From the IMG/VR virus record IMGVR_UViG_3300031993_000027, positions 63,492-127,491 of that record: a stretch of 64,000 nt of DNA, one strand, 5' to 3'. The position numbers and the translations under genes are program-made. Positions 1,355-46,573 of this stretch are shown here, piece by piece; position 1 is the first letter of the stretch; the number at the start of each line of letters is the position of its first letter. The notes below the pieces were generated by a model, which ran no database searches, had not been told where the DNA came from, and saw only the letters and a program-made list of their open reading frames with translations. Source of the DNA: a virus. Lineage: Duplodnaviria > Caudoviricetes.

Positions 1355-1560
1355 TACTTGTTCTCTCCTTCGTCTTCTGTCCCAACAAGGTTCTTAACAA
1401 AGTCATTAAAGTCTACACCCTTGATTTCTATCACTCTTCCTGACAGGAATGTGATTCTTACGCACTCATTCCTAGTAAGACTTGTCTCCATCGGCTGAAT
1501 TGATTCAACCGTATCCAAGTCGATGATAGCCTTGCCCTTTACACTGATAAGATTTGACAT
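1354..1560 (-). CDS. hypothetical protein
   Basis: ORF, TAATG coupling at both ends. Confidence 0.65.
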   Translation of the reverse strand: MSNLISVKGKAIIDLDTVESIQPMETSLTRNECVRITFLSGRVIEIKGVDFNDFVKNLVGTEDEGENK

Positions 1561-1712
1561 TATTCTTTTTCCTCTCTTTCTTCAAATCTGATGTAATCGT
1601 TGTTTCTACATTTTAACCACTCGGTATTGTCCAGTTGACACAGAGGAACATCAAAGTCCATACGTCCCACTTGGACAATCTCGGAGTATTTACATTGCTT
1701 ACAATCTCTCAT
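1560..1712 (-). CDS. small Cys-rich hypothetical protein (MRDCKQCKY..., 50 aa)
   Basis: Below ORF-track cutoff; AAGGAG SD, fills the gap exactly. Confidence 0.6.
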   Translation of the reverse strand: MRDCKQCKYSEIVQVGRMDFDVPLCQLDNTEWLKCRNNDYIRFEEREEKE

Positions 1713-2725: not shown

Positions 2726-3029
2726 CAAAACCTCCTTGACGTTTATCCTTGTCAGAATCTTCACATAACTTAACAACAGCATTGCTCAAATTCCTCTGCA
2801 TTACATAGCGGTATTGAGCAAAGTCTATCTCGGAAGCCATCGGTTCTATCCTGACCAAATCCTTTACCATTGCTTCATGGATAGCCTCTTCTAAGTTTTT
2901 TGCTTCAGTTAACCAGTTAACGAGATTGCGTTCATTCTGCATCATTATCTCTTCGCCTGTCTCCTTGTAGAACTCGGCATTGCCTTTGTGAAGAGCGATA
3001 GCCTCGTCTATGTTTAATACTTTTGCCAT
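2694..3029 (-). CDS. hypothetical protein
   Basis: ORF with AAGGAG SD. Confidence 0.65.
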   Translation of the reverse strand: MAKVLNIDEAIALHKGNAEFYKETGEEIMMQNERNLVNWLTEAKNLEEAIHEAMVKDLVRIEPMASEIDFAQYRYVMQRNLSNAVVKLCEDSDKDKRQGGFDENGNKEIHR

Positions 3030-3038
3030 AATGTCTCC

Positions 3039-3356
3039 TTATATATGAGTTTTGTAAAACTTGCATCCAAAAGGACTTGGTAGTGGAACAGTGTCTAATG
3101 TGCATCCATTATACCCATCATTATGAACACATTCCCACGCAGAACAGAAGGTTTCAGGTATGTCGTCTCTTAGTTCTGTTCCGTCTTCCTCGTCTTCAGG
3201 ATTCGGGTCTTCATCCGTCCAAGATTGCCAAGACATATCGTGATAGTCTAAACAAGCAGGTGGCATTCCCACTCCACCGTAATCTATCTCTATCTCTTCG
3301 AGAGTACAATAACCGTCTTTGACAAACTTACAATCAGCATTGCATTTAATCTTCAT
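3039..3356 (-). CDS. Cys-rich hypothetical protein (two CxxxxC..N..G.C repeats)
   Basis: IKCNADCKFVKDGYC and CSAWECVHNDGYNGC. Confidence 0.6.
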   Translation of the reverse strand: MKIKCNADCKFVKDGYCTLEEIEIDYGGVGMPPACLDYHDMSWQSWTDEDPNPEDEEDGTELRDDIPETFCSAWECVHNDGYNGCTLDTVPLPSPFGCKFYKTHI

Positions 3357-3952
3357 CCTTTAAACCTCCAACGGTCTTCGTGTTCTCTTCTTACAAACTC
3401 ATAGATGTAAGAATCCCTGAATTTACCCTGCCTGTCTCTGAATGTATCCTTCAGGACAAACTTGTTCACGTCCCACATAAAACTCTCTGCGTACTTAGTA
3501 CGGATTTTGTCATAAGCCTTGACAGCAGGATTGCCCTCTATTGCTCTGAACTCAACTCTATGTGGATTGTAGGATTCTATCATTGTTATCATTTCCTTAA
3601 CCGCATTGGTAATCACCCAACTAGGTTTATCTTTGAACGATATAAGACCTACTCCCCATACTCCGCTTGCATAGAAGTCAACATAGAATCCGAGATAACC
3701 TATGAGTTCTGTGGTCTTCTTTATCTCTTTATCTTCCTTCTTTTCTTCTTCAATGTCTTCGTTTTTGTCTTCATCTTCTATGATTTTCTCTTCAACGATA
3801 GCAAATTGAAATCGTCCCTCACTCGCTTCGTCGCTGATATTAAGTCTGCCAAACTCAATACATCCGTTGAAGTACATTGCCTTTTCAGAGTATCTCAAAA
3901 GGTCGAACTGCTTTATCAGTTCATCTTTGTATACGATTGCAGGTACTAACAT
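3353..3952 (-). CDS. putative GNAT (RimJ/RimL-like) acetyltransferase
   Basis: LIGYLGF..GLISF..HRVEFRAIEGNPAVKAY..RDRQGKFRDSYIYE pattern. Confidence 0.5.
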   Translation of the reverse strand: MLVPAIVYKDELIKQFDLLRYSEKAMYFNGCIEFGRLNISDEASEGRFQFAIVEEKIIEDEDKNEDIEEEKKEDKEIKKTTELIGYLGFYVDFYASGVWGVGLISFKDKPSWVITNAVKEMITMIESYNPHRVEFRAIEGNPAVKAYDKIRTKYAESFMWDVNKFVLKDTFRDRQGKFRDSYIYEFVRREHEDRWRFKG

Positions 3953-4656
3953 TATTCCTTAAACCTCTCTGACTTCAATTTGCTTGAATCTATAATAAAC
4001 TCACGGTAATCCTCATAGTCTTTGAATGTACGGAACTCTCCCCTGATTACATCAAGACAGTTCATGTTCCTAGCAAACTCATAAGAGTTAGTAGATACGA
4101 CAATGTAGAGTTCAAGACCCATCTGCTTTGCGTCTTCAATCATCATATTAAACACGCCTTTAACTTCATCCATGTTATCAATGCTAAATCCCGAATCAAC
4201 AGCATCTAACAAGATAAATCTTTTCTTAGGAAGAGGCTTCTTTTCTTCTTCGTTTCCGAATGCTGAACAAAAAACATCAGAGAATCTATCTCTGCTGTAT
4301 TCCCCTGCTTTTAGGAACGTGTATATCTTCCTGCACAACTCACCGATTTTAAAACCTATCTGTTCCCCTTCTGAAGAAAGAAACATAGTAGCCATCTTAG
4401 ACATTTGGTTCGAATACATAAATTCCTCATAATATTTATGTTCGTTCTCTTCTTTATTATCGAACAAAATAGTAGGAATGTCCTTTTTCCTTGTTTGTTC
4501 TTTGATGGTTTGTAGCATTGTCGTTTTCCCTGCTCCGTTACATCCTACAAGGATTGTTACTCCTTCAGGAAGAGAAACGGTATCTGCTAATGTAACACGG
4601 AAACCTTCTCCGTAAGGGTCATCATTAATCTTTATCTTGAACATAAATTCCTCCAA
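3952..4656 (-). CDS. ABC-type P-loop ATPase
   Basis: Walker A GCNGAGKTT, signature-like SEGE, Walker B ILLDAVDSG. Confidence 0.8.
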   Translation of the reverse strand: MEEFMFKIKINDDPYGEGFRVTLADTVSLPEGVTILVGCNGAGKTTMLQTIKEQTRKKDIPTILFDNKEENEHKYYEEFMYSNQMSKMATMFLSSEGEQIGFKIGELCRKIYTFLKAGEYSRDRFSDVFCSAFGNEEEKKPLPKKRFILLDAVDSGFSIDNMDEVKGVFNMMIEDAKQMGLELYIVVSTNSYEFARNMNCLDVIRGEFRTFKDYEDYREFIIDSSKLKSERFKE

Positions 4657-13991: not shown

Positions 13992-14143
13992 CCAATATAG
14001 AAAACTTATAAGAAGAAAACTTCTATGTTTCTTTCCTACTTCAACGAGTGTGCTTTCTTAATTGTTACCAATCAATACTCACAAGTTCTCGCACTCTCCA
14101 TAGGCGTTAATTTCCGACTATTGTATCGGTATCTGTTTTGAAA
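13992..14143 (-). ncRNA. putative TnpB omegaRNA scaffold / IS right end
   Basis: Non-coding, directly 3' of tnpB; CCGA..TCGG hairpin, GCCTA..GTAGG and GAGTG..CACTC pairings; resembles clostridial IS607-type right ends (recalled, not searched). Confidence 0.6.
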
Positions 14144-15301
14144 TTATATCAGGGCATAATTTCTTAGATTTACACTTGCCTGATAATCTCTATCTATTAT
14201 ATTCCCACAAACATCACATCTATAAATCCTATTACTTAGTTTTAAGTTATGTTTTATGTTTCCACACTTACAACACTTCTTAGAACTAGGATAGAACCTG
14301 TCAGCAATAACAAGTCTTATGTTGTTCCATTCACATTTGTATTCTAACTGTCTGTGAATCTCACGGAAACATTGTACCTGTATTGCCTTAGATAAGTGTT
14401 TGTTCTTCATCATTCCTTTTACATTCAGGTCTTCTATAACAATGAAACTTGGTTCTCGTCTTATTATTTCAGAAGTCATTTGATGTATAAAATTATGACG
14501 AATATTAGATACCTTATGATTTAGTCGAAGAAATTTAATCTGTTTCTTCTTAATATTCTTAGTTTTTCTATACTTACCTCCTTCTTTATTATTTTCATAA
14601 CTACGAGATATACTTCTTTGTATTCTCTTTGTCTTTTTATCTAATTGTATCAGTTTCTTGGCTTTATTGATATTAGAATATACAATTTCATCAGAACAAA
14701 TTGCTAAATCTTTAATTCCTAAGTCAATTCCTATTCCTTCATTAGAAGGATTCTTTTCTTCTAATTCTTCCTCAACGCCAACTGTTACCCACCAATTTAT
14801 ACCATCAAAAGTGAATCTTGGATTATAGTATTTAACTCCTGTTGGTATTCTATTTCTTTCTGCTAGTCTAATCCAATTTATCTTTTGTTTATTGGATTTC
14901 TTACTTTGAGTGAACCCTTCAACTTTAATCTGCGTTTCTGTCACTTTGATTTTACAAGAATCTTGAAAGAAACTAGGCTTACTTTTTCTTTTACTTTTGA
15001 ATCTTGGATACTCGGATTTTCCTTTGAAGAATTTAATATAAGAAGAACAAGCATCTTTTATCGCTTGTTTTGTTACTTCATTAGAAACCCTATAAAGCCA
15101 TTCATTCTCTTTTTGTTTCTTGTATTGAGTGAACAGTTTCCTAAGTTCTCCGTCTTGAACAAAGGTTTTGTTTTCTTGATAAGACTTATTTTCTTGTTCT
15201 ATAACCCAATTATAAGCATAACGAGAAACATTTGCATAGGCAAACATCTTTGTCATTTGCTTATTATTAGGTAAGAGCATTACTTTATAAGTCTTTATCA
15301 A
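14144..15301 (-). mobile_element. tnpB: TnpB RNA-guided endonuclease (IS607/IS605-type), no tnpA
   Basis: HTH_OrfB N-terminus, RuvC GIDLG / IEDL / DRD intact, SSKKCCKC..CDVC zinc ribbon. Confidence 0.93.
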
Positions 15302-30273: not shown

Positions 30274-30768
30274 TTATTCTCCTTTGTTATTGTGAAAGTT
30301 AACAAGGTTGTACTTTCTACAAAATTTTTCGAGTTCTCCAATGCTAGATATTTTGTTTAATATATCCTCATACTCCTTGTAAAATTCTAAACATCCAAGA
30401 AACTCTTTAAAGGATATGCTTCCTTCAAAATAATCCCTGCAATCTTCTTCGTTGACCATGCCATCCCAAGCCAAGCAGAAGATAACCAAATATTTGCGGA
30501 AGAAATTCTTCATTTCTCTTATTTCTTTATTGCTAATTTTTCTTGGCTCGTTTCCTTTAACATAGTCCCAGTTGCTATGAAGTTCAAGATTCCCTGCATC
30601 TTCGATATGAATCTTTTCAGGGTCAAACAGTACCTTAACTCTAATATCGTGGCTAGAGTTCTTTCCTGAAAAATAAAATGAAAAAGGCAATTTGTCCGTG
30701 ACTTTAACTTTTGCTCCACGGACGTTAGCCATTTCGAACAAAAAATCTTCGTTTGAAACTTCAATCAC
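30274..30768 (-). CDS. hypothetical protein with leader MIEVSNEDFLFE
   Basis: AAGGAGGT SD, GTG start. Confidence 0.7.
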   Translation of the reverse strand: MIEVSNEDFLFEMANVRGAKVKVTDKLPFSFYFSGKNSSHDIRVKVLFDPEKIHIEDAGNLELHSNWDYVKGNEPRKISNKEIREMKNFFRKYLVIFCLAWDGMVNEEDCRDYFEGSISFKEFLGCLEFYKEYEDILNKISSIGELEKFCRKYNLVNFHNNKGE

Positions 30769-32577: not shown

Positions 32578-33378
32578 TTACCTCTCAAAGTCTTCAAGGA
32601 ATCCATCTTCAGTATACGAACCGCCATAGCGAGCGATATCGTGGGCATAATCAGCGTAGTCGAAGTATCTTTCAAGGGTCTCTTTTCCTAACTCTTTTAT
32701 GTCTCCGTAGACCTCGGCAATATAGGCTTCACCCAAAGCACTGTCGTCACCTTCAGCAACGTTATACCAATCGTAAGCGGAAATATCAGCAAGGTCATCT
32801 ACGCCATAGCGTTCAAAGAGTTCAGCGATATACTTTTCGTCATTAGGGTCAACGTAATCGTTAGCATCGAAGTACAATGCTTCTTCCCTGCCGTACATTC
32901 CGTAATCAAAGTGATTGGAAAGAGTATCTTCATCTACGTTCTCTATACCACCTTCGAGTTCGTCAATGATTGTTCTTCCGAGAGTGTCATCATCATAAAC
33001 ATCTTCATAAAGATAGAATCTGTCAGGGTCGAAGTCTTCGATATCTTCTGCATCAACAAATCCTGCCTCGACAGCGTTCTTGAACTTCTTCATATCATAG
33101 TCGCTAAGATTGTCAATAGCCTCGGCAATCTCGTTCAACCTGCTAAGAGAATCATATTCACCGATTTCAAATCCTTCGATATCCGTTTCGTAGTCCGTGA
33201 TGAAATACTCTTCGTAGTAGTTACCATCTTCGTCAGGTTCGTCACTGATACCGATACGAGCAAATACTTCCTGAAGTTCATCGTCATCAACAGGAAGGTC
33301 TACCCATTCGCCTATCAACTCACCCTCGTTGTATTTACCGAGATTAGTAAGATATACTTTGATATGTGACATATACAT
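32578..33378 (-). CDS. ardA: antirestriction protein ArdA
   Basis: VYLTNLGKYNEGELIGEWVDLP..EEYFITDYE..YFDYADYAHD. Confidence 0.9.
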   Translation of the reverse strand: MYMSHIKVYLTNLGKYNEGELIGEWVDLPVDDDELQEVFARIGISDEPDEDGNYYEEYFITDYETDIEGFEIGEYDSLSRLNEIAEAIDNLSDYDMKKFKNAVEAGFVDAEDIEDFDPDRFYLYEDVYDDDTLGRTIIDELEGGIENVDEDTLSNHFDYGMYGREEALYFDANDYVDPNDEKYIAELFERYGVDDLADISAYDWYNVAEGDDSALGEAYIAEVYGDIKELGKETLERYFDYADYAHDIARYGGSYTEDGFLEDFER

Positions 33379-41830: not shown

Positions 41831-43318
41831 TTAAAATAATATGAATCCGTTGTACAGGTCTCTAGCATCGTCGTCGATAGGTGGTTTAATAGCCTTATCC
41901 TTTGGTATACGATTGACTAGCGCATCTTTAGGACTAGCAACAAGACCGTTTACAAAGTCAGTTGAGAAGTCTTCTTTAGTGTCGTTAACACCGCCAAAGA
42001 GCATAGCATCATCAACAAGATGGAATGCAAATTGACCGTCGTGAAGAGAAGCATTAAATACCGCACCTGCAAGCGAATCTGCGATATCCTTTGAAAATTC
42101 AGGTGGATGGTCAATTTTACCTGTTTGATTGTCTTGTTTAAGATTTACCAATTCTGTTACTAACTCGTCTTGATGTGCAAGAAGCATTATTCTTCTCTCA
42201 ATAAGAGCCGTTTTAAACGTCTGATATCCGTCAGGTTTCTTGTCCAAAGAAATAATGGTAGTGTCTTCAAACCCTGTTGTTTTGAACGTCTGCATCATAT
42301 CTCTGCTTTGAAAACTATCAAGAGATATTCCTTTTATGTTCCAACCTAATTCGTTTTTTAAATAATATACAAATTCTCTGTCCTTCCTAAAAGATATCTC
42401 CGAGCCACTAGGACACTGAATGCCGATAGAAAATACCTGTCTGTATGCTAGTTCTTTTATCTCGGTATGTTCTCCTGTAAAAAAGTCATATCCTTGTCTA
42501 TTTGTATATCCTAGAACCGCAACACAACTTATTCCTGTACGGTCTCCTGTAATAGAACAGTCAAAATGAATAAACAAAGGTTTAGAGTATACTTCCTGTG
42601 GTACAAGTTCGGGTTCAAAAAAATCCCTGTATTGAAGTTTATCTAACATACCAATCATAAGAATATTCGTTTTAAACGGATTCTTAGGTTCTACCATACA
42701 TTGCTGTATCGAAGGATAAGAAAGAAATCTCGTTACACCTGATACGGATATACCGCATATATCCATCAACGCTCTATCCATATTCATTTCAAATTCCTGT
42801 TTATGTTCCACAGGAACTTCTTCTATTGCATATCCTTGTGCAATGTATGTCTCACTATCTTCATTATCAGGAATGATTTTAGATGGTAAATTAGAACCTC
42901 CTACGGCTACTCTAAATTTCCTTCCTGAATAAGTACCTTGTGGTTTTACTTCATAGAGTTTTGCATCTGCAATATAAACTCCTTCTTTGCCTTTTTGTTT
43001 CTTTACGTAGGTTTCGATAAAGTCATACTCTGATTTCTTGGATGATACAAGGAACAACTTACCTCTGATTTTACCGTCAACGATAAAACGAGATTTGATA
43101 CGAGCAAGAACTGAAGTGTATGTCTCCATAATTCTCGTTTTTTCAAACTCAACCTCGGCTGATTTTGTAAAATTTACCTCGTCCAAAATTCCACAATTAT
43201 GCGACACCACGTATCCGCTTGGAGTTTCTATAAGGAAATTATGAGTTTCAGGAACATTTATAACATCATAAACATCTGTCTTTTTAGTCGTTATTTTTGT
43301 CACTTTTTTTACTTTCAC
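41831..43318 (-). CDS. terL: terminase large subunit C-terminal part, beginning with a 41-aa split-intein C fragment
   Basis: AAGGAG SD then GTG 43318; MKVKKV..VYDV..HNF..SHN|CGILDE (Walker B), LVSS motif C, nuclease IHFD and SKDIADSLAG. Confidence 0.85.
   Translation of the reverse strand: MKVKKVTKITTKKTDVYDVINVPETHNFLIETPSGYVVSHNCGILDEVNFTKSAEVEFEKTRIMETYTSVLARIKSRFIVDGKIRGKLFLVSSKKSEYDFIETYVKKQKGKEGVYIADAKLYEVKPQGTYSGRKFRVAVGGSNLPSKIIPDNEDSETYIAQGYAIEEVPVEHKQEFEMNMDRALMDICGISVSGVTRFLSYPSIQQCMVEPKNPFKTNILMIGMLDKLQYRDFFEPELVPQEVYSKPLFIHFDCSITGDRTGISCVAVLGYTNRQGYDFFTGEHTEIKELAYRQVFSIGIQCPSGSEISFRKDREFVYYLKNELGWNIKGISLDSFQSRDMMQTFKTTGFEDTTIISLDKKPDGYQTFKTALIERRIMLLAHQDELVTELVNLKQDNQTGKIDHPPEFSKDIADSLAGAVFNASLHDGQFAFHLVDDAMLFGGVNDTKEDFSTDFVNGLVASPKDALVNRIPKDKAIKPPIDDDARDLYNGFILF
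43196..43318 (-). other. split intein C fragment (IntC, 41 aa)
   Basis: Block F VYDV..HNF, block G SHN, +1 Cys; basic N-terminus. Confidence 0.85.
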
Positions 43319-43667
43319 TCTTTTCTCTCCTTTTCTTTTTAACAAGATTTGTTATACAATATATTCCTGACGTTTTACAATTTCCGCTATCTAAATCCAT
43401 ACCCTCGGTTAAATCTTTTGCTTCAACATATTCACCTGAAGCAAGTCTAAGTTTATGGTTATAAGTACATCTTAAAACACAACCGTCTTCTAATTCAATT
43501 TCGATTAGGTCTGTTTCTGTTCCTGTTTTTCTGATTTCCACAGGTGAATCTGTTAATTTAATTGTTCCATCATCATACTTTGTATAAACTCTTACACATT
43601 GACCCTCTAAAGTTTTTAGAGAGCGAACACCTTTTTCGGTAAAAATCCTTGTTTTTTCATCAAGACA
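43284..43667 (-). other. split intein N fragment (IntN, 127 aa including tail)
   Basis: Block A CLDEKTRI, block B CTYNHKL, EAKDLTEGMDL; no block F/G before stop. Confidence 0.85.
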
Positions 43668-44702
43668 AAGGATAGCCTTACCTAATGAGTGTTCAGGCTG
43701 TGAACCTACCGTAAATTTGATATCAGCGTTTTCCGTTTTATTCGGTACGTATTCGAGATATTTCGTTCCTGTTACAGTACCTCTTGCCATAAACCAAGGT
43801 GAATGTTGTAACAAACTTTGAAACTTATTAAATGCAACACCTTTTGAAAGTTGAAGAGTAGCATTAAAGAATACTACGAATATTGTATCTCCACGACCAA
43901 GACCAAAGTATAGGTTAGGGTCTCTCAAACACATCGTCCAATAAAGAGTATAAGCAAGACCTATTACCGCTATTGTGGATTTTCCGCATCCGATTGAATT
44001 ATGTGCTACAATGCCACTTTCGGTAACAAAATTATGATGCTCTTCAACCGTTAAATCATAAACATATTCTTCTCCAACATATTCGATAGAGACAACACTC
44101 AATTCATTACATCCATCTGAAGGCAACAAAAGAGTTCCTATTTCTAAACCATTATCAATGCTTATCCACGTTATATTACTATCTATAAATTTATGATTAG
44201 ATGTTGCCTTGATACTTTTTCCGTTATCAAGGGTTATCTTGTAAACCTTCTTTATCCCTGTACAAAAGGCTTGTGTAAGATGACCAACAGTATATTCGTT
44301 TCTCTTTATATCAAACGAGTATACATATTCGTCTAAATCTCCTATTTCAGCCAAGTCCTTCATTGTTACATTCTTGCCATTTAGTAAAGGAATTAGCGTG
44401 TCACCTGTTAAACAGCCACCAAGCACTATTTCAGAGAAGTTTTTACTCTCGTCAAATATTTCCCTTAACTTTTGTCTCCAATAAGGGAATATATTCTTTC
44501 CATTGTTAGTAAACCACCCTGCAAACTCGTCGCTCTCGATGAACTCGTCTATACTGACAGGAACTTCAATAAAGTCATCCTCGTATAACTTCTTCAGGGT
44601 TTGGGAGTGCCCCTGCTCCGTGTACTCACCGAGAATCTTTTTGACCGCTTCCTGCTCTTCAGGACTTAACTTAGCAAGAACATTGTCTGTAAGTTCTGAC
44701 AT
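43284..44702 (-). CDS. terL: terminase large subunit N-terminal part with cis mini-intein and split-intein N fragment
   Basis: Walker A rebuilt as GG|SIGCGKS after removing intein 1; ends in second Hint N-half. Confidence 0.85.
   Translation of the reverse strand: MSELTDNVLAKLSPEEQEAVKKILGEYTEQGHSQTLKKLYEDDFIEVPVSIDEFIESDEFAGWFTNNGKNIFPYWRQKLREIFDESKNFSEIVLGGCLTGDTLIPLLNGKNVTMKDLAEIGDLDEYVYSFDIKRNEYTVGHLTQAFCTGIKKVYKITLDNGKSIKATSNHKFIDSNITWISIDNGLEIGTLLLPSDGCNELSVVSIEYVGEEYVYDLTVEEHHNFVTESGIVAHNSIGCGKSTIAVIGLAYTLYWTMCLRDPNLYFGLGRGDTIFVVFFNATLQLSKGVAFNKFQSLLQHSPWFMARGTVTGTKYLEYVPNKTENADIKFTVGSQPEHSLGKAILCLDEKTRIFTEKGVRSLKTLEGQCVRVYTKYDDGTIKLTDSPVEIRKTGTETDLIEIELEDGCVLRCTYNHKLRLASGEYVEAKDLTEGMDLDSGNCKTSGIYCITNLVKKKRREKSESKKSDKNND
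43998..44414 (-). other. cis mini-intein (139 aa) in TerL Walker A
   Basis: CLTGDT..ATSNHKF..VYDLTV..HNF..AHN|S; no endonuclease domain. Confidence 0.92.
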
Positions 44703-44860
44703 TACTTCTTATCCTCAATCTTCTTGTATTCTTCTCGAATGCAATGACTAATGAAAGCCGATGCGGAAGTCTCGTGATAGTTAGCCAATGACTTTAGTTT
44801 CTGTTTATCATTCTTAGTCATCGACACTGTTATTACTGTTCTTTTGATTTCGTCAGGCAT
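44702..44860 (-). CDS. ribbon-helix-helix (CopG/Arc-like) DNA-binding protein
   Basis: TVITVSM..KQKLKSLA..SASAFI; start moved to ATG 44860 after AAGGAGGT. Confidence 0.65.
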   Translation of the reverse strand: MPDEIKRTVITVSMTKNDKQKLKSLANYHETSASAFISHCIREEYKKIEDKK

Positions 44861-44894
44861 AAATACCTCCTTTGTAAATAATTCTGCTTTATAT

Positions 44895-44923
44895 ATTATA
44901 CAGTGATTATTTATTTCAAGCAA
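44895..44923 (-). promoter_or_regulatory. sigmaA-type promoter for RHH-terL
   Basis: TTGCTT-17-TATAAT. Confidence 0.55.
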
Positions 44924-44960
44924 TAAAAAGGAGACAGCATTGTGGAAGTTGCTGTCTCCC
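44922..44960 (-). terminator. intrinsic terminator ending the tRNA operon
   Basis: GGAGACAGCA-10nt-TGCTGTCTCC stem then TTTTTATT. Confidence 0.75.
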
Positions 44961-45070
44961 TACTACTAAACAGGAGGTACACGATTGCCGTGATACCTTG
45001 GTATAGACCGCAACGAGCGTGACTTTACTGTGATTCATCCCTGTGTAAAAGTAAAGTTGTCACGGTCTAT

Positions 45071-45145
45071 TGGTCACTCTGAAGGGAATTGAACCCTTGT
45101 CTCCACCGTGAAAGGGTGGTGACTTAACCACTTGTCCACAGAGTG
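45071..45145 (-). tRNA. tRNA-Glu (TTC), CCA encoded
   Basis: CACTCTG/CAGAGTG acceptor, CCACC-CTTTCAC-GGTGG anticodon arm, TTCAATT T-loop. Confidence 0.93.
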
Positions 45146-45150
45146 ATAAT

Positions 45151-45396
45151 TGGCAAGTGAGAGATTCGAACTCTCGGTGGCTTTCGGCAATCACTTCCGT
45201 ATGCGGATGATATTGACCCTACTACGCCACACAATCAGATAATGAAGATAACCACTCGCATCCCACCGTTCTGTTAGAACTCAATTAGAGGTATTAACGA
45301 TTACTCTCCCTCGCTTATACATTCTTCACACGCCAAAGCCTTGTCCGTTTCTTCGGCAACCTGCTGTCGCATTTAACCTGCCTCTGCCAACTTGCC
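45151..45396 (-). ncRNA. 246-nt tRNA-like RNA with greatly expanded anticodon and variable arms
   Basis: GGCAAGT/ACTTGCC acceptor, D arm GCA..TGC, T arm GAGAG-TTCGAAT-CTCTC, about 170 extra structured nt. Confidence 0.7.
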
Positions 45397-45459
45397 ATTT
45401 TGTCGATGTAGGTCGTCATCGACGAACGAGAAGATTTTAGGATAACATCTTCAAACCAT

Positions 45460-45547
45460 TGGCGCAGACAACAAGATTCGAACTTGTACTAGTATTGCTA
45501 CTAGGAAGGATTAGCAATCCTTTGGGTTACCGTTACTCCATATCTGC
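45460..45547 (-). tRNA. tRNA-Ser (GCT), CCA encoded
   Basis: AAGGA-TTGCTAA-TCCTT anticodon arm, long variable arm CTAGTA-GCAA-TACTAG, discriminator G. Confidence 0.92.
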
Positions 45548-45554
45548 AACTAGT

Positions 45555-45681
45555 TTGCTTCGGCAGGATTCGAACCTGCAAATGTGGCTTTTTGTCGGCA
45601 ATTACCACTCCAATAACTTCGAGCATAAGCCAACTTTTTATTGCTCTAAGTCCGTTCGCTCTCCCATTGGGCTACGAAGCA
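45555..45681 (-). ncRNA. 127-nt tRNA-like RNA with extended anticodon and variable arms
   Basis: TGCTTCG/CGAAGCA acceptor, T arm GCAGG-TTCGAAT-CCTGC, no canonical 7-nt anticodon loop. Confidence 0.65.
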
Positions 45682-45883
45682 TTATTATCAGATACTAACC
45701 GTTTCGGATATCTTTTGCAAGTAGAACTCTCTGTTTTATACTTACCTTTTCACTAGCCTGTTCCGATGTTTTTATGTGCCAATGCCATTGCGTGCTATGT
45801 TGACACCCTTCTTGTTGTTGAAGAGGATACCTCTCTATCAAAAGTTTCGAACCTTTTGATAGTGGCATTACAGATAGTACCTG

Positions 45884-45958
45884 TGGTTGAGGTAACAGGA
45901 TTCGAACCTATGAATGTGGGAGTCAAAGTCCCATGCCTTACCACTTGGCGATACCTCA
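45884..45958 (-). tRNA. tRNA-Gln (TTG), CCA encoded
   Basis: TGAGGTA/TACCTCA acceptor, TGGGA-CTTTGAC-TCCCA anticodon arm. Confidence 0.93.
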
Positions 45959-45966
45959 ATATTTAA

Positions 45967-46062
45967 TTCAGCAGGTAAGGATTTGCACCTTACATAGCAC
46001 TCTTTTATAGATAGTCTGTGCCTTTAACTATCCTAAGCGTCTACCTATTCCGCCACTGCTTC
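45967..46062 (-). ncRNA. atypical Leu-like tRNA or pseudo-tRNA (96 nt)
   Basis: Leu-type D arm TGGCGGAATAGGTAGACGC, T arm GTAAGG-TGCAAAT-CCTTAC; only 5-bp acceptor and 11-nt anticodon loop. Confidence 0.55.
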
Positions 46063-46217
46063 ATATCAAGTATATTAAAGGAACGCCTTTTGAGATTAAA
46101 TCTCTTTAACGGACTAGGCAGGGATTAACATTATGTGGATACCAACGCTTATGAGAGATATTGTTTATGAGGTTGCCGTACCGAGGGCGTTATTTACTTG
46201 TCAAGATTCATGTTTTT

Positions 46218-46246
46218 ATTATATTGATTAGGGTAGCGTATTTCAA
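46218..46246 (-). promoter_or_regulatory. sigmaA-type promoter of tRNA operon with CTACCCTA in spacer
   Basis: TTGAAA-TACGCTACCCTAATCAA-TATAAT. Confidence 0.8.
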
Positions 46247-46573
46247 CTACTCTTCGTCGTCTTTACCAAAACTAAACTTAGTAAAGGATGCGTTCTCACT
46301 TTTGAGAACTCCGTCTATGTACTCTTGGTCTTCCATGAACTCACACATACGGCTTACAACAGGTGACAAACCAAGAGCAAGTGTATTGTCGTCGAGTTTA
46401 TCTGCGTCGCCATGACACCCATCTTCCGCAAGATAGAGGATGTAAAACATCAATGCCTGTGCCAGTTCGGTTGTGATTTGATATCTTGCTCCCATCATCT
46501 GACACGTATTGGTCATTTTATCGTCTATCTTAGGAGTTAAGTTGCTTTTCGGAAACAAATTACAATAAATAAT
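46247..46573 (-). CDS. hypothetical protein, probable ATT start
   Basis: AAGGAG 7 nt before in-frame ATT 46573; track start TTG 46558 lacks an SD. Confidence 0.6.
   Translation of the reverse strand: MIYCNLFPKSNLTPKIDDKMTNTCQMMGARYQITTELAQALMFYILYLAEDGCHGDADKLDDNTLALGLSPVVSRMCEFMEDQEYIDGVLKSENASFTKFSFGKDDEE

Follow-up and report, generated by a model that had tools for sequence, protein, structure and literature searches.

What is an anticodon-less, tRNA-shaped RNA of 246 nt doing inside the tRNA operon of a phage? The window, by which we mean the whole 64,000-nt stretch of DNA analysed here, makes up the latter half of the record of a rumen phage, which is complete at 127,491 bp and carries direct terminal repeats. 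Near-identical DNA was found in bovine-gut sequencing runs, and an adjoining endolysin-type gene indicates a bacterial host. The minus strand carries an RNA operon (about 46060-45071), within which the RNA in question, here called A, lies between tRNA-Ser and tRNA-Glu, reading from 45396 to 45151. From 5' to 3', the operon and its putative signals are as follows.

46218-46246, minus strand: promoter-like site TTGAAA-17-TATAAT upstream of the RNA operon (11/12, a consensus match only)
45958-45884, minus strand: tRNA-Gln, called by ARAGORN and Rfam
45681-45555, minus strand: RNA B, a 127-nt 'tRNA' called by Rfam
45547-45460, minus strand: tRNA-Ser, called by ARAGORN and Rfam
45151-45396, minus strand: RNA A, the whole 246-nt tRNA-like RNA, defined from its sequence and a homolog on the independent contig L028, with its stems checked base by base
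45145-45071, minus strand: tRNA-Glu, called by ARAGORN and Rfam
44925-44959, minus strand: terminator-like hairpin GGAGACAGC..GCUGUCUCC followed by UUUUU, read from the sequence, after tRNA-Glu

The last of these was missed by our terminator scan, which had a loop limit of 8, because its loop is 12 nt. The three canonical tRNAs (Gln, Ser and Glu) encode their CCA; A and B do not, and in A the discriminator base is followed by AUU. RNA B resembles tRNA-Leu(UAG) with a 43-44-nt insert at 37/38, as do its relatives at L054:3401-3544 and L055:1868-1996, and the array holds odd tRNA-like elements besides A that differ between the window and L028. Homologs of RtcB, RNA ligase, CCA enzyme and Pnkp were sought in the phage, and none was found.

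Position p of RNA A corresponds to window position 45397-p on the minus strand. Numbered in this way, the frame consists of the following parts.

45390-45396, minus strand: 5' strand of the acceptor stem, GGCAAGU, positions 1-7, in perfect pairing with 239-245
45369-45387, minus strand: class II D arm, positions 10-28, with a 3-bp stem (GCA/UGC, 10-12/26-28) and a 13-nt loop with GG
45359-45367, minus strand: 5' strand of the long 'anticodon' stem, ACAGCAGGU (ACAG-CAGGU), positions 30-38, paired with 157-166
45231-45240, minus strand: 3' strand of the same stem, AUCUG-A-UUGU, positions 157-166, paired with 30-38
45177-45230, minus strand: 54-nt extra (variable) arm, positions 167-220, with a GUGGC/GCCAC stem (167-171/216-220) around a hairpin at 186-207
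45159-45175, minus strand: T arm GAGAG-UUCGAAU-CUCUC, positions 222-238
45151-45158, minus strand: 3' strand of the acceptor stem, ACUUGCC (239-245), and discriminator A246

The 7-bp acceptor, the discriminator A, the class II D arm and the T arm had all been described in the initial annotation, and each was confirmed base by base. Its variable arm, GUGGC..GCCAC with a long hairpin inside, is likewise present, and the anticodon arm is indeed replaced by the ACAG-CAGGU/AUCUG-A-UUGU stem, which has 9 bp, a bulge at A162 and 118 nt inside it. The tertiary hallmarks of a tRNA are all intact (U8, the GG of the D loop and the UUCGAAU T loop), and the T arm is of the Leu/Ser kind. When the D arm was compared with 1002 phage tRNAs, the best 12 listed were all tRNA-Ser, tied at 9; the mean was highest for Ser, and the best Leu also reached 9. 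The best explanation, judging from these arms, is that a class II tRNA whose D arm was serine-like gave rise to the frame. The element AUUGCCGA..GCCAC in the extra arm is common to A and the 127-nt RNA B. The minimum-free-energy fold of A (z = -1.2) lies at -71.3 kcal/mol and is not the comparative fold, which reaches -57.6 kcal/mol when constrained; we count this mismatch against the carrier reading proposed below.

Is A then a member of a class that is already known? At default settings, neither ARAGORN nor Rfam, two of the detectors named in the initial annotation, calls it, and an Rfam search of 44600-46400 at E values up to 10 found nothing on A, be it tmRNA, group I intron or anything else. 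With introns allowed, ARAGORN reports a 'tRNA-Met, 157-nt intron', an artefact in which the D stem is borrowed as an anticodon stem. Held against the tRNA family (RF00005), A has the 7-bp acceptor, the D arm and a T arm with a UUCRANY loop; it has no 5-bp anticodon stem with a 7-nt loop bearing U33, an anticodon and R37, and neither reaches the gathering cut-off of 29 bits nor draws a default ARAGORN call. Nor does it fit tmRNA (RF00023). The third acceptor pair is C3-G243, hence there is no G3:U70, a 3-bp D stem is present, no tmRNA is called by ARAGORN or Rfam and no tag reading frame occurs in A, in agreement with the earlier opinion that this is not an ordinary tmRNA. The same annotation had thought a typical group I intron improbable, and that also stands: the group I model (RF00028) does not match A and did find the introns at two other loci (L024 and L050). 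What A does fit is the type of the phage T5 RNA1 and RNA2, an anticodon-less tRNA-like frame encoded in a tRNA cluster.

Much of the answer lies in what the 9-bp stem encloses. The initial annotation had seen about 120 nt with further helices; the size holds, at 118 nt, and the helices resolve into one defined module joined to the stem by a 4-nt/3-nt internal loop. The module is laid out as follows.

45244-45354, minus strand: the cargo, a module copy including its closing helix P1, positions 43-153, about 111 nt; full-length match to covariance model R1 (118 bits, E 1.6e-28), which was built from 14 sequences that include the window and L028 copies
45331-45349, minus strand: 5' core AACGGACAAGGCUUUGGCG, positions 48-66; the 19-mer AACGGACAAGGCTTTGGCG has exact matches in 18 IMG/VR contigs, which come from quite different phages
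45269-45329, minus strand: junction and variable part, positions 68-128, with RUGA at 68-71, P2, an inner hairpin and AACAGAA at 122-128
45250-45268, minus strand: 3' core CGGUGGGAUGCGAGUGGUU, positions 129-147; the pattern GGTGGGAYGCGNGTGGTT is present in 109 IMG/VR stretches

This is the sole R1 copy in the window. Combining the searches with the 19-mer and with the 3' pattern, we collected 82 distinct instances of the module, from 50 to about 220 nt in length. Their alignment, together with RNAalifold, gives a common architecture in which P1, a covarying closing stem, forms from the flanks and the two cores pair as a long irregular helix, followed by a junction RUGA / AACARR and then by an optional P2, often with an inner hairpin GNNG-GAGA...CGUUAAUA-CNNC. 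The 3' core has the family consensus CGGUGGGAYGCGWGUGGUU. All of the family's marks are found in the cargo of A (AACGGACAAGGCU..GGCR, YGGUGGGAYGCGNGUGGUU, P1 and RUGA/AACARR): its P1 is GAAGA 43-47 / UCUUC 149-153, its P2 is AGAA 72-75 / UUCU 118-121 and its inner hairpin is GAGG 85-88 / CCUC 106-109. The helices UGAAGA/UCUUCA and GUUCU-AAC-AGAAC of the initial annotation did not survive this comparison; they are complementary as written, but the family alignment gives their strands other partners, in P1 and P2, and UGA 69-71 and AACAGA 122-127 emerge from it as conserved junction residues.

Of the 82 instances, the majority of them collected through the 3' core pattern, 79 retain the element AACGGACAAGGCU; since the cores were partly used for finding, the conservation of each is independent only in the set found through the other. 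Pairing offers a further line of evidence. With 73 distinct sequences aligned to R1, two-sided changes occur in 14 of 25 pairs, and the covariation score is 0.273, compared with 0.085 for shuffled alignments (none of 500 reached the observed value) and at most 0.069 for slid controls. Pair 19/c-1, which adjoins the core, is G-C in 40 instances and A-U in 37; pair 20/c-2 takes all four Watson-Crick types, and the position after it switches between G.A and A.G. Covariation is also seen in P2 and in the inner hairpin, and between the window and L028 the P2 pair A72-U121 changes to G-C while A74 and A75 become G.U. By these sequence comparisons, the insert is one copy of an independently occurring, covarying RNA family. 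At one locus (L053) the module appears circularly permuted, with the 3' core first, P1 capped and the ends at the P2 side.

RNA B had looked like a possible degenerate copy of the module, a candidate that we rejected, as R1 does not match it even with filters off and E values up to 10; the AACGGAC that it has in common with the module is a coincidence, for its relatives read GCGGAC and ACGGAU. No family in Rfam 15 covers the module, and a full-text literature search for the core sequences returned no RNA paper. With no match in the searched databases and literature, we regard the family as undescribed there and as a new RNA family. Possible resemblances to 4.5S RNA, 5S loop E, the T-box sequence and Y RNA were set aside; none of them has an Rfam match.

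The places where the module occurs point mostly to tRNA genes. Among the 81 copies outside the window, 57 lie no more than 300 nt from a tRNA gene, all on the same strand and mostly at a distance of 6-20 nt, and the window copy itself sits inside a tRNA operon on the strand of its tRNAs. Module-bearing arrays also hold ROOL, drum, cow-rumen-3, tmRNA and group I introns. At three loci (L103, L140 and L145) the module begins 8 nt past the stop codon of a PolyA_pol/CCA-type nucleotidyltransferase gene. At another (L040) it lies between genes for a PNKP phosphatase and a PNK-like kinase and adjoins an Rnl1-type RNA ligase gene, a block that corresponds to the tRNA-repair set of phage T4, and CCA-type or tRNA-repair genes are found within 5 kb of it at two more (L128 and L158). 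At L062, L084 and L100, small proteins that belong to a single family have their ends 6-10 nt upstream of it.

The family is spread over phages of several bacterial groups. A blastn search of cultured phages with the minimal form of the module returned 126 records, from 121 Streptomyces, 4 Arthrobacter and 1 Synechococcus phages. In Streptomyces phage Faust the module (NC_070783: 79016-79115) lies in a gap in the tRNA/tmRNA region (R1 79.7 bits), in CeilingFan (PV165877: 93192-93245) it lies 40 nt past tRNA-Arg, and in every cultured-phage record looked at its site carries no annotation. A search of 185,579 prokaryote species genomes for the exact 19-mer produced 11 matches, three of them true; these (L057, L058 and L062) are on MAG contigs assigned to Bacteroidota (Prevotella, Paludibacteraceae and Rikenellaceae), and the L062 copy (1752-1801) has the minimal length of 50 nt. 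The other eight were rejected as chance matches in coding sequence, several of them in DnaJ-type glycine/phenylalanine-rich regions. A metagenome scan restricted to gaps of 30-60, a range shorter than the common 100-nt form of the module, found only L067 and L068.

Enclosure in a tRNA frame is the exception in this family: it is seen only in the window and L028, 2 of the 82 instances, and about 80 other distinct phage loci carry the module free-standing. Two further candidates for enclosure were examined and rejected. An 'enclosing frame' at L101 is a chance match to the T arm of the neighbouring tRNA, and a tRNA-Glu call over the module at L058 is weak and does not amount to a second tRNA-framed copy. 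These counts bear on the proposal, made in the initial annotation, that A is a tRNA scaffold carrying a novel RNA domain. Its central idea is supported by the independent covarying family and by the preserved structure of the frame; what has to be given up is the notion that the insert is peculiar to A.

How the frame itself has evolved can be read from the L028 homolog (L028:4131-4376), which we reached through a homolog of the neighbouring terminase. Homologs and covariation had been named at the outset as the check to make; a homolog of A and covariation in the module family were found. On L028, A is 94% identical and B 100% identical. The 15 differences in A fall into 4 in the 135-nt frame and 11 in the insert, and all 4 frame changes (3%) preserve structure, at a locus where 8 of 64 positions (12.5%) differ in the adjoining 5' spacer. 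The T-stem pair A223-U237 is replaced by U-A in L028 (GUGAG/CUCAC), a compensatory change, and in the lower stem G33.U163 gives way to G-C and the bulged nucleotide is U in place of A162. The extra arm is identical in the two; as A is represented by only two haplotypes, the extra arm and the D arm have no covariation support. Taken together, the sequence changes support a frame that is probably under structure-preserving selection.

Other relatives of A are few. Read comparison revealed close variants in three other sequencing runs. A 199-nt contig from one RNA library spans 45226-45425 unspliced; it could come from DNA, and we read it as a hint of an unspliced transcript and nothing stronger. 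In run X3, contig record 13 appears to join positions 27-61 of B to positions 48-151 of A, which would put the module in a tRNA of the B type. Searches of IMG/VR with an exact 28-mer from the 5' end of A, and with the pattern AUUGCCGA..GCCAC..T-arm element, gave no match, and blastn of the array against cultured phages returned ordinary Gln and Glu tRNAs only. Loci reached through the intein-bearing terminase were distant and offered no relative of the frame, those reached through the portal protein were without tRNAs at the corresponding place, and the closer terminase relatives (L026 and L029-L035) have ordinary tRNAs and no module.

The reading that we favor, at a probability of roughly 0.6, is that A is a non-decoding, tRNA-shaped carrier RNA, a natural 'tRNA scaffold' for the conserved phage module. 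The frame would keep acceptor, D arm, T arm and long extra arm, and the 9-bp stem would continue into a full copy of the module. A would be transcribed as part of the tRNA operon, between the promoter-like site (46246-46218) and the terminator-like hairpin (44959-44925); host RNase P would then cut at G1 and, since no CCA is encoded, a 3' enzyme such as RNase Z would cut after A246. The tRNA-like ends and elbow may protect A and hold the module on a rigid arm, which is the principle of the engineered 'tRNA scaffold', and in other phages a free module could be released through processing of the neighbouring tRNAs. The module would be the working part of A. Its neighbours (tRNA arrays and CCA-type and Rnl1/Pnkp genes) suggest an action on the maturation, repair or defence of tRNAs, for which the likeliest means would be binding to a host or phage factor that is very conserved. 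We count against this reading that the need of RNase P and RNase Z for the frame, in freeing the neighbouring RNAs, could be the sole reason for its persistence.

The alternative that holds up best, though we consider it unlikely, is an accident: the module would have recombined into a tRNA gene, leaving a frame that is a decaying pseudogene or a mere processing signal. The restriction of the arrangement to a single phage lineage would suit such an event, free-standing copies indicate that the module needs no frame, and the other odd tRNA-like elements of the array are not the same in the window and L028. A decaying frame, however, would hardly be expected to diverge by 3% next to a spacer that diverges by 12.5%, even with only two haplotypes to compare, or to show a compensatory T-stem pair, a G.U to G-C change and intact tertiary hallmarks.

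A neighbouring view, also unlikely, puts the weight on the cargo's activity and on charging. It takes the roughly 50-nt core (AACGGACAAGGCUUUGGCG plus CGGUGGGAYGCGWGUGGUU) to be invariant and to define a new class of phage RNA with a direct action on tRNA maturation or repair, either a ribozyme or a tight binder or inhibitor of some universally conserved factor that handles or cleaves tRNAs, which is here fused to a serine-type tRNA body, processed, CCA-ended and perhaps charged. If it were true, A would be a second natural design, besides tmRNA, that joins a tRNA to a functional domain.

More doubtful still is an intron-like insertion, in which the module would have entered a class II tRNA gene, once functional, at its anticodon loop, and its removal, by itself or through host enzymes, would give a working tRNA. 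Deleting the module with its P1 (43-153) does leave exactly a 5-bp (9-bp) stem and a 7-nt loop, the apparent inserts at 37/38 in B and its two relatives offer a parallel, and the apparent circular permutation at L053 recalls a trait common in ribozymes. However, the leftover loop, UGCCAUU, has neither U33 nor a purine at 37, and the bulged 9-bp stem and 54-nt extra arm also speak against this reading. None of the deletion constructs of A given to ARAGORN yielded a credible tRNA, and no group I intron matches. Nor do the junctions, as read from the sequence, form a bulge-helix-bulge, being a 4-nt/3-nt internal loop with unbroken helices on either side. The phage encodes no ligase or RtcB, and some 80 other copies of the module lie outside any gene. 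No spliced joint was seen in one RNA library (run X24), a weak point given that neither this absence nor the uncovered parts in that run are evidence either way.

It seems quite improbable that A is a decoy whose frame or module soaks up a host tRNA-cutting defence enzyme. The idea, offered in the initial annotation, draws on the module's place in tRNA arrays, within the Rnl1/Pnkp tRNA-repair block of L040 and beside the CCA-type enzyme gene of L103, L140 and L145, a neighbourhood that is the whole of its evidence, and it is at odds with the lack of an anticodon stem-loop in both module and frame. As it concerns the function of the cargo, it is compatible with the carrier explanation. Weakest, and very improbable, is a charged tmRNA-like RNA whose Ser-like frame is aminoacylated and brings the module to the ribosome or EF-Tu: charging of an anticodon-less A is conceivable because SerRS and LeuRS ignore the anticodon (the Ser, Leu and Ala synthetases do not read it), the D arm is most like tRNA-Ser, the extra arm is long and T5 RNA1 is of Leu type, but no CCA is encoded, the discriminator is A and not the G usual in bacterial tRNA-Ser, there is no tag frame and no tmRNA found by ARAGORN, and elsewhere the module works free of a tRNA frame.

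For the carrier reading, the closest natural relatives of A, by comparison of their annotated forms and folds, appear to be the T5 RNA1 and RNA2. The T5 record (NC_005859) places RNA1 at 30501-30644 (144 nt) and RNA2 at 32959-33083 (125 nt), inside the tRNA cluster, and annotates both as 'tRNA-like stable RNA with unknown functions'. As in A, acceptor, D and T arms are present and an elongated lower arm replaces the anticodon arm. The fold of RNA1 is a Leu-like frame whose lower arm is long; it differs from A in its Leu-type D arm, its 144 nt and an arm without the module, whereas A is Ser-like, 246 nt long and bears a widely shared module and a 54-nt extra arm. The engineered tRNA scaffold of Ponchon and Dardel presents the same design, in that the anticodon stem-loop is swapped for a structured cargo as a hairpin extension, with recognition by cell factors and protection as the purpose (PMC3753655). 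Acceptor, T and D arms are kept in it, and the cargo occupies the anticodon stem-loop site, as in A; it differs in being man-made, from human tRNA-Lys3 or E. coli tRNA-Met, whereas A is known here from sequence.

Other systems resemble A more distantly. tmRNA also combines a tRNA-like domain with a lower half that is a large functional domain, and it too occurs in phage tRNA arrays; A differs in having no G3:U70, a true D stem, no tag frame and no ARAGORN or Rfam match. tRNA genes with group I introns have a large structured insert at the anticodon arm, but A does not match Intron_gpI, its insert measures 111 nt, and what remains once this is taken out has no anticodon loop. ROOL, GOLLD, drum and cow-rumen-3 are, like the module, structured phage RNAs near tRNA genes, from which the module is set apart by its unrelated sequence and fold and its small size (50-220 nt). 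The linker region of GOLLD sometimes includes tRNAs (PMC12286853), the reverse of the arrangement in A, where the RNA lies inside the tRNA frame.

What is chiefly new is the module family, which its neighbourhood links to tRNA maturation and repair. This RNA family is small and sharply conserved, its phages infect Actinobacteria, Cyanobacteria and gut and rumen bacteria, and the presence of the module in easily grown Streptomyces and Arthrobacter phages makes its function directly testable. Its neighbours suggest that it has a part in the competition for tRNAs between phages and host defences, an active field. If A is indeed a carrier, phages would be using the tRNA shape to carry another functional RNA, and the 'tRNA scaffold' of biotechnologists would have been invented independently, a finding that may bear on the stable tRNA-like RNAs annotated in the T5 tRNA region.

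RNA B, which lies with the 246-nt tRNA-like RNA A in its minus-strand operon, has relatives elsewhere; together they form a small family of genes resembling tRNA-Leu(UAG), whose L054 member may carry a CUA anticodon.

Window 45555-45681, minus strand: RNA B, 127 nt, tRNA-like; relatives at L055:1868-1996 and L054:3401-3544

Every member (B, L055 and L054) carries a 43-44-nt insert directly 3' of the anticodon, with which the anticodon pairs; the resulting long hairpin shows covariation (GAGCA/UGCUC versus GACCA/UGGUC). In the L055 member the anticodon stem GCGGA/UCCGC is perfect. This insert belongs neither to the group I nor to the bulge-helix-bulge introns.

An element with a Leu-type D arm lies farther upstream in the operon.

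Window about 45966-46058, minus strand: element with a Leu-type D arm (GGCGGAAUAGGUAGACGC); counterparts in L028, a relative's contig, at about 3000-3560

The window's element lacks an anticodon loop; its acceptor stem has only 5 bp and its T stem 6 bp, and its T loop, UGCAAAU, is unusual. L028 holds three such elements, one of which has the same ends as the window's but an insert of ~125 nt in place of the window's 43 nt, and the T stem of these elements covaries (GUAAGG/CCUUAC versus GUGAGG/CCUCAC).

The module, the phage RNA family with one copy inside A, may also occur in other arrangements.

L053, around the match at 1551-1569, minus strand: module copy, apparently circularly permuted in the order of its cores

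In this copy the 3' core (UGGUAGGUGGCGAGUGGUU-GACCA) comes first, followed by a P1 stem capped by a 51-nt insert and then by the 5' core; its ends are closed by CUGAGAGG/CCUCUCAG, and it is without the RUGA/AACARR junction. A contig from sequencing run X3 (record 13; 1482 nt, depth 28.7) aligns to the module (A positions 48-151), then jumps directly to B positions 27-61 and continues into a tRNA T arm, and it may come from a relative carrying the module within a B-type tRNA.

Minimal module copies of 50-62 nt lie 6-10 nt downstream of the ends of small protein genes.

L062:1490-1744, L100:3162-3380 and L084:853-1071: small protein genes, one family, 72-84 aa

Identity within the family is 33% between lineages, and its match to the Tis1 immunity protein (PF24154) is weak, falling below the cut-off; its product is a possible partner protein of the module.

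Other elements occur in the window and its relatives.

Window 14033-14104, minus strand: RAGATH-18 RNA (Rfam, 63.8 bits), directly downstream of a 385-aa ORF (14144-15301)
Window 41831-44702, minus strand: split terminase large subunit with intein (Hint) segments (Pfam)

The terminases of relatives have GIY-YIG or HNH inserts (Pfam) in place of the intein segments. Two group I introns lie directly upstream of the portal gene in L024 (3302-4623), the region where this phage family has its terminase.

All three canonical tRNAs of the array (Gln, Ser and Glu; window 45071-45958, minus strand) encode the 3' CCA, but the oversized A and B do not, which suggests that the 3' maturation route of A and B differs from theirs. 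The spacer between tRNA-Gln and B is better conserved against L028 than the other spacers.

Window 45682-45883, minus strand: spacer, 202 nt, 99% identical in L028

It contains a T-arm-like hairpin (AUCAAAAGGUUCGAAACUUUUGAU), is covered by one RNA-library contig and may be a further non-coding RNA. In L028 the array lacks tRNA-Ser, a deletion shared with run X2 (joint 45457 to 45555), and has an extra 165-nt element (4377-4539) between A and tRNA-Glu (window counterpart 45146-45150). By these sequence comparisons, the tRNA array is undergoing reshuffling among close relatives.
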